Source of the DNA: a bacterium
GTDB taxonomy: Bacteria; Patescibacteriota; Patescibacteriia; JACQRZ01
Direction: 5' to 3'
NCBI GenBank assembly: GCA_023246095.1
Contig: JAHFJA010000003.1
Span: 10,782 to 74,781 of the forward strand
Length of the DNA stretch: 64,000 nucleotides
Shown here piece by piece: positions 12,629-35,536 of this stretch (position 1 is its first letter; every line of letters begins with the position of its first letter). Both the position numbers and the translations under genes were made by a program. The notes under the pieces are model-generated. The model saw only the letters and a program-made list of their open reading frames with translations. It was not told where the DNA came from and made no database searches.

Positions 12629-12657
12629 TTGGTAAAAGCGCATATTCACGATATACT
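12629..12657 (+). promoter_or_regulatory. Sigma70-like promoter TTGGTA-17-TATACT carrying an ATATTCACGA motif in the spacer
   Basis: TTGGTA 12629-12634, TATACT 12652-12657; spacer contains ATTCACGAT, the same half-site as the Fic operator. Confidence 0.45.
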
Positions 12658-12671
12658 ATAGGTATACAAAT

Positions 12672-13118
12672 ATGTTATTCCAACGAACAAAAAAAATTGA
12701 CGCACATACGACCGACCAACAATGGTGGGCTGATGCATCGCATGCCGCAACAGAAGGGAACTCTTGGGAGGCACTTGCTGAAGGTCAGTTGATGGTGGAC
12801 GTATATGATCGACCTGATGCAGTGGTCGTAAGGTCGCTTATCGCGGGAGTCAACGCAGAGGACTTGGAGATCTCTCTCAATGGCGACATGCTGACATTGC
12901 GCGGTACTCGTGAAGAAACTGAAGAGATTGCGGATGATCAGTTTTTTGCTCGTGAATGCTATTGGGGTTCCTTTTCTCGATCGATTATTATTCCCTCACA
13001 GATACAACCCGACAAAATAAAAGCTTTTTCAAAAAATGGCGTAGTAGTGATAATCCTTCCTAAAATAATACAATCAACGGATATATCAGTACGAACAGAA
13101 GACGACTATTTGGATTAA
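12672..13118 (+). CDS. Small heat-shock protein, Hsp20/alpha-crystallin family
   Basis: ACD core: LMVDVYDRPDAVVVRSLIAGVNAEDLEISLNGDMLTLRG...FSKNGVVVIILPK. Confidence 0.8.
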   Translation: MLFQRTKKIDAHTTDQQWWADASHAATEGNSWEALAEGQLMVDVYDRPDAVVVRSLIAGVNAEDLEISLNGDMLTLRGTREETEEIADDQFFARECYWGSFSRSIIIPSQIQPDKIKAFSKNGVVVIILPKIIQSTDISVRTEDDYLD

Positions 13119-33609: not shown

Positions 33610-33624
33610 TGATTTGATACTAAA

Positions 33625-33716
33625 AACCGTGAATATTGAGCCAAATCTGGCATATATTCACGATTTATTGACAAAATACCGTGAATGTGCTATAGTATAG
33701 CTATATCATTCACGAT
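33625..33716 (+). promoter_or_regulatory. Promoter (TTGACA-17-tgcTATAGT) overlapped by two nested inverted repeats CCGTGAAT(A/G)...(C/T)ATTCACG (operator)
   Basis: IR1 33627-33636/33653-33661; IR2 33679-33687/33708-33715; -35 at 33668-33673, -10 at 33691-33696; central GCTATAgTATAGC palindrome. Confidence 0.6.
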
Positions 33717-33719
33717 TTT

Positions 33720-34610
33720 ATGGCTCTTTCCTTAGCGTTTCAGAAGAAAATCGATACACTAAAAAAAGAATATGACACCCTGCGCATCGGCAAGGGTGAT
33801 CTTTTGCGTTTGCTGGATGAGTCGGAATTGCCCGAAAGCGTGTTTAACTCCAACGCGATTGAAAACTCGACGTTGACGTTGCGCGAAACAGAAAAGATCT
33901 TGCTTGAAATGGAAGTGTCTCGTGATGTATCGGTGCGAGAAGTGTTTGAAGCAAAAAATCTTGCCCGTATTATGGGGTATATTCAAAAGAAAACAGCAGA
34001 AAAAGATGTCGATAAGGAACTCATTTTGTTTTTGCACCAGATGCTTATCGGCGGAATCAACGATGACATTGCAGGGCGGTTTCGCGCGAAAGGAGAATAC
34101 GTGCGCGTGGGGACATACATCGCTCCTGCTCCGGAAAAGATTGACGGTATGATCGATGATTTACTGACAACGTGGCGCACAAGCACTGGATATGTGGTCG
34201 ATCGCATTGCGCAATTTCATCTGGAGTTTGAAACAATCCACCCATTCATAGACGGTAACGGTCGCATGGGGCGCATACTGATGAATTACCAGCTCACGCG
34301 ATTGGGATTTCCCAATATTATTATCCGCGATAAAGAGAAGCGCGAGTATTACGCTATTTTTGCGCCGTATCGCACACGAAAAAACACGGCATATTTGGAA
34401 CGTATCCTCGCACTTGCGTTGATGGAATCATTTCATCGTCGGCTTGCATATCTCAAAGGATTTTCGATCGTTACGTTAGCCGAACATGCAAAAGAAAAGC
34501 GAATGTCTTTGTCTGCACTGCTTAACATGGCAAAACGGCAGACCACGCCGGCATTTCGTGAGCGCGGGGTGTGGAAGATCGGGGTGAAGACGGGAAAGAG
34601 GGGGAAATAA
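33720..34610 (+). CDS. Fic/Doc-family protein (AMPylase-type), class II with N-terminal autoinhibitory [S/T]xxxE[G/N] motif
   Basis: Canonical Fic motif HPFIDGNGRMGR; upstream SNAIEN matches the inhibitory-helix motif; C-terminal about 60 aa basic helical tail. Confidence 0.85.
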   Translation: MALSLAFQKKIDTLKKEYDTLRIGKGDLLRLLDESELPESVFNSNAIENSTLTLRETEKILLEMEVSRDVSVREVFEAKNLARIMGYIQKKTAEKDVDKELILFLHQMLIGGINDDIAGRFRAKGEYVRVGTYIAPAPEKIDGMIDDLLTTWRTSTGYVVDRIAQFHLEFETIHPFIDGNGRMGRILMNYQLTRLGFPNIIIRDKEKREYYAIFAPYRTRKNTAYLERILALALMESFHRRLAYLKGFSIVTLAEHAKEKRMSLSALLNMAKRQTTPAFRERGVWKIGVKTGKRGK

Positions 34611-34617
34611 TAAAAGT

Positions 34618-34655
34618 GAGAAACATTGTTTTTGTTTCTCACTTTTATTATTTAC
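34618..34655. terminator. Bidirectional terminator AAAAGTGAGAAACattgtttttGTTTCTCACTTTT
   Basis: 13 bp perfect stem with A/T flanks between convergent genes. Confidence 0.75.
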
Positions 34656-34659
34656 TTAA

Positions 34660-35259
34660 TTAATCGTCTGCCCAATCAACTGTTACATTTTTAAATGCGG
34701 AGAAATCTCTTGCTGCCAATTTTCCGCTTTCGCCGTGGTTTCCCCACCATGTTGTGTATGTTCCAACAGGTGCATGCTCTACAAACACTAGACCTTTACA
34801 TGGGAAATCTTGATTTAAACCTTCTTCGTTTGTTACTCCTTCTACACTTGCAACACTGAGGTCTCCTCTGTATCCATCTTCTGTATATGAGGCGGCAACC
34901 GTTTTTGGTACTGTGAAGTACTGAAGATAGTTTTGGGCGTCACTAATCCATTTAGGGTCTGTGATTTCAAGAAACCTTTGGGTTAATAAATTATCTTTGA
35001 TAATGAATTCTTCATTAAAGTATAATCCATCAGGCATTAATGAAAAATTTTCTTTGATCCAAGGGGTCAATATTTTTTCGTATGGATCCTCAGTATATGA
35101 ATCCTGGTCACTTAGTTGAATTCCTTCAAACCAAAATCCATACAATTCGCCTTTTTCAGGACAGCCCCATATTACTTTAGGTTTATTGTAATGATACTTG
35201 ACTTCATTCAATAAGGCCTTAACAATTTCAGGGGTAATTAAAGTAGCTGTTTTATTCAT
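34660..35259 (-). CDS. Hypothetical protein (about 199 aa)
   Basis: Start at Met 35259 with SD GGAGAAAG; the longer ORF to 35361 lacks an SD. Confidence 0.45.
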   Translation of the reverse strand: MNKTATLITPEIVKALLNEVKYHYNKPKVIWGCPEKGELYGFWFEGIQLSDQDSYTEDPYEKILTPWIKENFSLMPDGLYFNEEFIIKDNLLTQRFLEITDPKWISDAQNYLQYFTVPKTVAASYTEDGYRGDLSVASVEGVTNEEGLNQDFPCKGLVFVEHAPVGTYTTWWGNHGESGKLAARDFSAFKNVTVDWADD

Positions 35260-35536
35260 TTTTCTTTCTCCTCGGTTCACGATCCGAAAACGCTTAAAAT
35301 TGTAATTAACTAATATAAGTATAGCATAAAACTCAAGATAAGTCAAGCGTTTTATGGACATTTATATCCTTATAAATATAAGCTTTTTAGACGTATACTG
35401 GGTTTACTTGTAAATATAAGGAGAAACAGTATTTTATGGCTATTTTTGTCGAAAATAGGGGTAAAACAGGTAATTCAATAAAATAGCCCTTTTCTCTGTT
35501 TTTGCGTATACTATAAAGATCAATACCCTTACTCCC

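Follow-up and report, generated by a model that had tools for sequence, protein, structure and literature searches.

The window considered here is the whole stretch of DNA that was analysed, 64,000 nucleotides (nt) or 64 kb of contig JAHFJA010000003.1. It carries a gene for a Fic protein, preceded by a promoter into which four copies of a short half-site are fitted; the coordinates of these features are collected in Table 1. Fic enzymes occur widely, as toxins, as effectors and in defence, and their control in cells is only partly known. The Fic domain (PF02661) was the sole Pfam domain in the protein of 296 amino acids (aa), matched at 3.8e-20 with 73 bits against a cut-off of 24. The Fic motif HxFx(D/E)GNGRxxR is represented by HPFIDGNGRMGR, whose H, F, D, G, N, G, R and R are invariant in the alignment of homologues. 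The nearest solved structures by sequence were those of FICD/HYPE (2.7e-21 over residues 11-214), and a Foldseek search with the model of the window Fic matched FICD, BtFic and SoFic. The segment SNAIEN (S44-N49) aligned onto the FICD inhibitory motif TVAIEG, and the residues from N43 to L52, inhibitory motif included, were invariant across 30 homologues. Because of these two results the protein is classed, by its sequence, as a class II Fic with the inhibitory motif N-terminal in its own chain. The initial annotation of this DNA had described it in the same way, from the canonical Fic motif and the SNAIEN segment, and the open reading frame (ORF), the motif and the FICD alignment all confirmed that description. 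As for a separate antitoxin gene supplying the inhibitory helix, the class I arrangement, no conserved neighbour gene was found in approximately 80 loci, the orthologous loci described below. No second Fic gene was found in the window.

Table 1. Coordinates of the Fic gene, its promoter, the half-sites and the protein segments, given as positions in the window.
Feature	Position	Strand	Basis
Half-site S1, CGTGAAT (extended AAAAACCGTGAATAT, 33622-33636), distal arm of upstream operator O1	33628..33634	+	Exact match
Half-site S2 (ATTCACG on + strand), proximal arm of O1	33656..33662	-	Exact match; ends 5 nt before the -35 hexamer
-35 hexamer TTGACA	33668..33673	+	Near-invariant in 80 loci
Half-site S3, CGTGAAT, within the -35/-10 spacer, first arm of operator O2	33680..33686	+	Exact match
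Extended -10, TG-c-TATAGT	33688..33696 (hexamer 33691-96)	+	Orthologue consensus TATAAT
Half-site S4 (ATTCACG on + strand), second arm of O2	33708..33714	-	Exact match
Fic gene, assigned to class II, 296 aa	33720..34610	+	Pfam Fic 3.8e-20; FICD/HYPE match 2.7e-21
Inhibitory motif S44-N-A-I-E48-N49, fits (S/T)xxxE(G/N)	33849..33866	+	FICD alignment
Fic active-site motif HPFIDGNGRMGR, H174-R185	34239..34274	+	Motif inspection, homologue alignment
Predicted winged helix-turn-helix, residues 249-289	34464..34586	+	AlphaFold2, fold matches
Recognition helix with its specificity residues, S263-T275 (covariation with operator bases at S265 and T275)	34506..34544	+	Mutual information
Hairpin AAUAAAAGUGAGAAAC...GUUUCUCACUUUUAUU between convergent genes	34611..34647		RNAfold -18.7 kcal/mol

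The promoter, TTGACA-17-TATAGT, agrees with the consensus at 11 of 12 positions and has the TG of an extended -10. Judging from the position of the -10, transcription would start near 33703, and S4 falls at approximately +6 to +12 of the predicted transcript, in a leader of about 17 nt without a Shine-Dalgarno sequence. Inverted repeats of CGTGAAT/ATTCACG at this promoter had been reported in the initial annotation, and four exact half-sites, S1 to S4, were indeed found. The repeats had been taken as nested palindromes with gaps of 16 and 20 nt; they are instead two tandem units of identical geometry, CGTGAAT-N21-ATTCACG, displaced by 52 base pairs (bp), and with the extended arms used at first the gaps are 17 and 19 nt. 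Four of the 11 copies of the 7-mer in the window are clustered here within 87 bp. Among 2000 block shuffles, the maximum was three 7-mers per 90 bp, seen once, and four were never reached. The arrangement of sites and promoter supports the repressor-operator layout proposed originally.

A homologue search at E-values up to 1e-5 returned at least 8000 proteins. The family is abundant, with thousands of protein clusters at 90% identity, mostly from Patescibacteria. The 120 best homologues were all full-length (approximately 290-320 aa), with Patescibacteria as their main source and Deltaproteobacteria and Nitrospirota also represented; their identity to the query was 62-67%, except for the window's own protein and one relative at 85%. 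More than 587 matches were found among species-representative genomes. From these, 80 orthologous loci with 57-66% identity were taken, originating from Patescibacteria, Syntrophales and other Deltaproteobacteria, Nitrospirae, Elusimicrobia, Lentisphaerae, Planctomycetota and others, and were aligned ungapped on the -35 hexamer. Nearly all 80 loci share the consensus taaAAAa...GT.AAT-(spacer)-ATTCACgaaATA-TTGACA-Ataa..cGTgAATatg.-TATAAT, with the common layout S1-N20/21-S2-N6-TTGACA-N7-S3-N4-TATAAT. Information content is highest at the three half-sites and at both hexamers, falling to near zero between them. S2, the most conserved upstream block, starts 12 nt before the start of the -35 hexamer in 76 of 77 loci, while the distance from the -35 start to the S3 start is 13 nt in all 65 scorable loci. 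The position of S1 is fixed at -39 to -34 from the -35 hexamer in most of the 80 loci. The distance from S1 to S2 is 26 or 27 nt (69 of 69 loci), as is that from S3 to S4 (19 of 19). With at most one mismatch and 26-27 nt from S3, S4 was present in 24 of the 51 leader-bearing loci, the window included. In approximately 29 of the 80 loci (e.g., L020, L030, L040 and L076) the ATG is placed 3-12 nt (mode 6) past the -10, and these are predicted to be leaderless and have no S4; the leaders of the window and of some 50 further loci are short and rich in A/T, and lack a Shine-Dalgarno sequence. In the 85% identical relative (L001), where Fic follows the same glycosyltransferase gene as the window Fic, all four half-sites are kept while the S1-S2 spacer is mostly substituted, which makes a phylogenetic footprint. 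The same layout was observed in a locus with 66% identity (L003), which is found in another context after a tRNA-Trp gene, with half-sites CGTTAAT/ATTAACG. The centre of the S1-S2 spacer (33637-33653 in the window) is weakly conserved as GGC..TTTT, which may aid bending or add a contact; other spacer positions vary freely.

Residues 249-289 are predicted to form a winged helix-turn-helix (HTH). Their predicted local distance difference test score (pLDDT) from AlphaFold2 exceeded 90 when the full protein was modelled and was 75.7 when the domain was modelled by itself, with the same beta-alpha-alpha-beta-beta topology in both, i.e., a strand, helix 253-260, helix 264-272 and a two-strand wing. 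Structural matches were obtained to BldC (root-mean-square deviation 2.0-2.3 A over 40-42 residues, probability 0.97) and to phage HTH, excisionase and PrtN proteins (1.2-1.5 A over about 40 residues, probability ~1.0). Pfam searches with the C-terminal 60 residues at E-values up to 10 returned only noise (AbiEi_4 0.094, Phage_Cox 0.12) and neither HTH_17 nor MerR, a PDB profile search with the C-terminal domain gave nothing below E=0.3, and NCBIfam had no specific family for the window Fic. A profile search of 1.84 billion representatives yielded 221 proteins, of which the long ones (approximately 290-310 aa) match C-terminally, like the family of the window, and the short ones are fragment-like; the lengths and match positions of these 221 proteins, which were not scanned for a Fic domain, suggest no other architectures for the winged HTH. 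The C-terminus is predicted from these models to be a minimal winged HTH of the excisionase/BldC type (MerR superfamily), of approximately 45 residues. Autoregulation had earlier been tentatively attributed to a basic helical tail at the C-terminus of Fic. The autoregulation finds support in the 80 loci and in the covariation described below, while the tail itself is the predicted winged HTH.

There were two main observations from the comparison of sites with proteins. Firstly, the half-site variants change from locus to locus, yet match inside any one locus. At the base 5' of GTGAAT, S1 and S2 were identical in 61 of 75 loci, where 31 would be expected, and at core base 3 in 71 of 75, where 44 would be expected; none of 5000 permutations reached either value. 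Secondly, the variants track two residues of the HTH of Fic itself. Residue 275, the X in a near-invariant RRQXI, is N together with A before the core in 17 loci and T together with C in 31 loci (Fisher 2e-13), counted in loci where S1 equals S2, with no exception there. Residue 265, at the N-terminus of the recognition helix, is N or H with GTTAAT (18:1), while other residues go with GTGAAT (42:2; Fisher 1e-12). Mutual information has its maxima at residue 275 for the base 5' of GTGAAT (0.93 bit) and at residues 264/265 for core base 3 (0.5-0.6 bit). In two loci with A275, L083 and L029, the core is immediately preceded by ATG, with ATGTGAAT at both S1 and S2 of L083 and ATGATTAA in L029, the latter left out of the counts since its sites scored too poorly. 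Loci with K275 have mixed bases before the core and frequent GTGAAA cores. On a tree of the Fic domain only, the residue-275/base pair changed state 12-13 times and core base 3 changed 8 times, and the association recurs in separate clades (L069 and L011 for N/A, several clades for N/H with T). The window protein (S265, T275) obeys the code at all four half-sites.

The sites, the promoter, their conservation with the gene, the covariation of bases with residues and the predicted fold are computed results, and comparative genomics of this kind argues strongly for direct negative autoregulation. We consider it quite likely that Fic directly represses its own transcription by means of the C-terminal winged HTH. 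The domain would read a half-site of the form (A-tract)-N-CGTGAAT, with xCGTGAAT in the major groove, and the conserved wing (PAFRExGVWKI) would plausibly contact the A-tract flanking each site. Two-fold symmetric Fic dimers would probably occupy O1 (S1 and S2) and O2 (S3 and S4). S1/S2 and S3/S4 are favoured as binding units because of their common spacing of 26/27 nt and because sequence agreement is best between S1 and S2. When bound, S2 and S3, which bracket the -35, would together with S4 block RNA polymerase at a near-consensus extended -10 sigma-70 promoter, and such repression would keep a potentially toxic, auto-inhibited class II AMP-transferase low and self-limiting. Promoter, operators and gene would form a self-contained cassette of approximately 1 kb, presumably spread horizontally among Patescibacteria and several other phyla.

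Several points weigh against this account. For the Fic family of the window, binding, dimer stoichiometry, the pairing of sites, the sign of regulation (repression or activation), as well as the enzymatic activity and its target, are what we infer. A spacing of 26-27 bp corresponds to about 2.5 helical turns and thus places paired half-sites on opposite faces of the DNA, which requires an unusual dimer geometry or DNA bending. The pairing scheme is also uncertain, because S3 is without a downstream partner in the approximately 29 leaderless loci out of 80. Fold-match E-values are weak, 0.05-0.13, for this 45-residue domain without a sequence family, owing to its small size, and the inhibitory-helix region (residues 37-76) has a pLDDT below 50 in the AlphaFold model. 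Finally, the Fisher p-values overstate independence, since the large N/A class is mostly one clade.

Fic could also bind these sites mainly for DNA-driven allosteric switching of the enzyme between AMPylation and deAMPylation, or for activation, with repression being secondary or absent. CbFic2 is stimulated by DNA and shifted towards deAMPylation (PMC10628234). In FICD, by sequence the nearest relative of solved structure, the oligomeric state acts as the switch according to PDB titles, and the centre of S2 lies about 45 nt before the predicted start, where activators bind too. We regard this explanation as unlikely, since S3 lies invariantly inside a spacer of the optimal 17 nt, at a consensus promoter with no need of activation, and since CccR, with a comparable layout, is a repressor. 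Repression and switching can, however, coexist and are not mutually exclusive.

It is still less probable that the half-sites are operators of a separate host regulator, e.g., a stress regulator that also controls Hsp20, with the Fic C-terminus otherwise employed. A C-terminal domain without a DNA-binding family recognised by sequence would be compatible with such a regulator, and so would one half-site elsewhere in the window, an exact ATTCACGAT at 12644-12652, which the initial annotation had correctly located in the promoter spacer (TTGGTA-18-TATACT, a promoter-like site) before an Hsp20-like ORF. The sites of Fic, however, travel with it across phyla and unrelated neighbourhoods without a conserved partner gene, and their variants follow residues of its own HTH. 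The 7-mer is moreover not enriched: the motif-enrichment check suggested earlier, run in the 64-kb window only, gave 11 copies against 11.16 expected, and 27 against 25.8 for the 9-mer with at most one mismatch, so that outlying copies are at chance level. A scan of the window for paired sites, converging or diverging, with at most one mismatch per arm, found the Fic operators only. The half-site at the Hsp20-like promoter is single, in the orientation opposite to S3, and without a partner at the needed spacing. Another copy of ATTCACGAT, said to be at 35266-35274, is in fact GTTCACGAT with one mismatch at 35275-35283, in the 5' untranslated region beside the Shine-Dalgarno sequence of a minus-strand neighbour gene whose promoter-like site is at 35346-35318, and no partner half-site at the needed spacing was found for it. 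The small stress regulon of Hsp20 and the neighbour gene, proposed from these two sites, was rejected for the window given chance-level counts, unpaired sites, no paired operator outside the Fic promoter and the misquotation of one site; a false lead is thereby removed. The Hsp20-like gene (12672-13118) has a -10 that ends 14 nt before its ATG and no Shine-Dalgarno sequence, and is thus near-leaderless too.

That the inverted repeats are an RNA hairpin or attenuator, a DNA cruciform, or the ends or recombination sites of a mobile element is very improbable: the domain fold does resemble excisionases, some loci abut tRNA genes and the neighbourhoods look like defence or toxin-antitoxin islands, but the repeat arms are just 7-13 bp with loops of 17-19 nt, the sites occur at the 5' end only and in fixed register with -35/-10, and there is no integrase or recombinase among the recurrent neighbour families (the commonest in 7 of about 80 loci). 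The RNA-structure reading in particular was rejected, since S1-S3 lie upstream of the predicted start and mRNA hairpins from them are impossible.

The system most similar in logic is CccR of Yersinia pseudotuberculosis, a class II Fic toxin with a C-terminal HTH that represses its own promoter at an operator AGATAATCAT-N26-ATGATAATCT near -35/-10, as demonstrated by electrophoretic mobility shift assays, footprinting, isothermal titration calorimetry and reporter fusions (PMC9755527). CccR forms a back-to-back dimer with HTH helices 70 A apart, and the spacing of its half-sites is 36 bp (PMC9755527). Both systems have widely spaced inverted half-sites near -35/-10, and the dimer-dependent repression that CccR exerts through two such sites would have its parallel in the family of the window. 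The spacing is half-integral in both, 36 bp (approximately 3.4 turns) in CccR and 26-27 bp (approximately 2.5 turns) in the family of the window. The DNA-binding residues of CccR, 201-380, form a large SoFic-type domain, while the winged HTH of approximately 45 residues described here has no detectable sequence relation to it. Further, CccR has one operator, against three or four half-sites and two operators in the family of the window, whose Fic core, at least in the window protein, is nearest to FICD and which is without a type VI secretion system context.

A SoFic dimer binds the promoter of its own gene (bioRxiv 10.64898/2026.07.09.737422), and CbFic2 is switched by DNA binding (PMC10628234). 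Like the window protein, both are class II Fic proteins fused to a C-terminal winged HTH, but their architecture is DUF4172, Fic and C-terminal winged HTH (IPR048770), and SoFic is a named anti-phage defence gene. In the window protein, no DUF4172/Fic_N was detected by Pfam, and it has no SoFic-type C-terminal domain (approximately 100-150 residues); its length is 296 residues compared to approximately 370. The NCBIfam SoFic equivalog scored 32 bits on it against a cut-off of 550, and the PDB alignments to SoFic and to 7XUX, which may be the CccR structure solved in PMC9755527, covered the Fic core only. The family of the window is not a member of the SoFic/CccR/CbFic2 architecture.

FICD/HYPE, the animal AMPylase/deAMPylase of BiP in the endoplasmic reticulum, is the best match of the Fic core both in sequence and in fold, the inhibitory helix included, but it has an N-terminus with tetratricopeptide repeats and a membrane anchor and no DNA-binding domain. 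The BldC/excisionase proteins (Xis, HTH_17, MerR superfamily) share the predicted beta-alpha-alpha-beta-beta topology, and the A-tracts flanking the half-sites of the window would be expected if the wing contacts the minor groove. They are, however, small stand-alone proteins that usually bind head-to-tail on direct repeats, whereas the domain in the window is fused to an enzyme and its sites alternate in orientation. Autoregulated type II toxin-antitoxin systems, for example Phd-Doc, resemble the family of the window in a toxin-like enzyme of the Fido fold under negative autoregulation at a promoter-overlapping operator (probable here), and the neighbourhoods of this family are rich in restriction-modification and toxin-antitoxin genes. 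In contrast to such systems, there is no separate antitoxin or DNA-binding partner, and the inhibitory helix (alpha-inh), the enzyme and the presumed repressor domain are in one chain.

For one Fic protein, CccR, autorepression through the DNA-binding domain of the protein itself is established, and for SoFic it has been suggested; the principle is already known and would be no conceptual surprise to Fic specialists. What is new is the logic of CccR realised with a much smaller, non-homologous DNA-binding domain, a multi-site operator in register with the promoter and a readable specificity code. The whole circuit, i.e., a consensus promoter, three to four half-sites and often a leaderless mRNA, moves with the gene, and offers a widespread, clean and testable system. 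Natural variation provides a two-position recognition code, in which residue 275 goes with the base before GTGAAT and residue 265 with core base 3, and this makes the hypothesis directly testable. The family could also supply compact orthogonal repressor/operator pairs.

The neighbourhoods of the cassette were compared across the approximately 80 loci. No conserved neighbour gene such as an antitoxin or an integrase was found around them, the commonest family being present in 7 loci, which leaves Fic as the sole protein that always accompanies the sites. Neighbours that recurred in the flanks of L004-L083, none of them universally, were type I HsdM in 7 loci, a Doc-like toxin and a type III Mod methylase in 6 each, GIY-YIG in 5, and RadC/JAB and a second Fic bearing its HTH N-terminally in 4 each, typical island content that makes the neighbourhoods resemble defence or toxin-antitoxin islands. 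PADLOC models for PDC-S04, a single-gene defence candidate (6.8e-35), and SoFic (1.6e-26) both matched on the Fic core. Because of these matches and the island-like neighbourhoods, a role in defence or addiction is plausible but unproven. A wider reading would make the cassette a horizontally mobile single-gene addiction or defence unit with double-duty operators and orthogonal HTH/operator groups. Operator occupancy would then repress transcription and also keep the enzyme on the DNA as a dimer that is inactive or deAMPylating, as has been proposed for CbFic2, so that loss or titration of the operator would free both expression and AMPylation. The HTH/operator pairs (AGTGAAT, CGTGAAT, CGTTAAT, GTGAAA and others) would have diversified to become orthogonal, and several cassettes could then be present together without cross-talk. 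Taken together we hold this combination to be doubtful.

Some minor observations were made on individual loci. In L007 (2354-2429) the end of a tRNA-Asn gene coincides with the expected position of S1, and S2, S3 and S4 alone remain; in L003 a tRNA-Trp gene (2758-2829) lies approximately 170 bp upstream of the cassette. Both suggest insertion of the cassette at, or next to, tRNA 3' ends. HicB-like and HicA genes were found between the ribulose-phosphate epimerase and glycosyltransferase genes (L001 1729-2179, L002 2-190); their presence in the sister genome and not in the window points to a variable spot upstream of Fic. No difference separates the Fic promoter region (130 bp before the gene) and the protein C-terminus of L012 from those of L013, whose metagenome-assembled genomes are labelled 'Patescibacteria group bacterium' and 'Candidatus Saccharibacteria', respectively. 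This could reflect the same organism, a difference in binning or labelling, or a very recent transfer.

Downstream of Fic, the convergent gene on the minus strand (34660-35259) encodes 199 aa from an ATG at 35259, in an ORF extending to 35361, and the protein had no Pfam, NCBIfam or PADLOC match. The GC content of this patch is 31-36% compared to 43-49% around it. The gene is absent from the syntenic L001 and is on that account probably a recent insertion. The hairpin between the two genes directly follows the Fic stop codon and is flanked by runs of A and T; it is likely a bidirectional intrinsic terminator.

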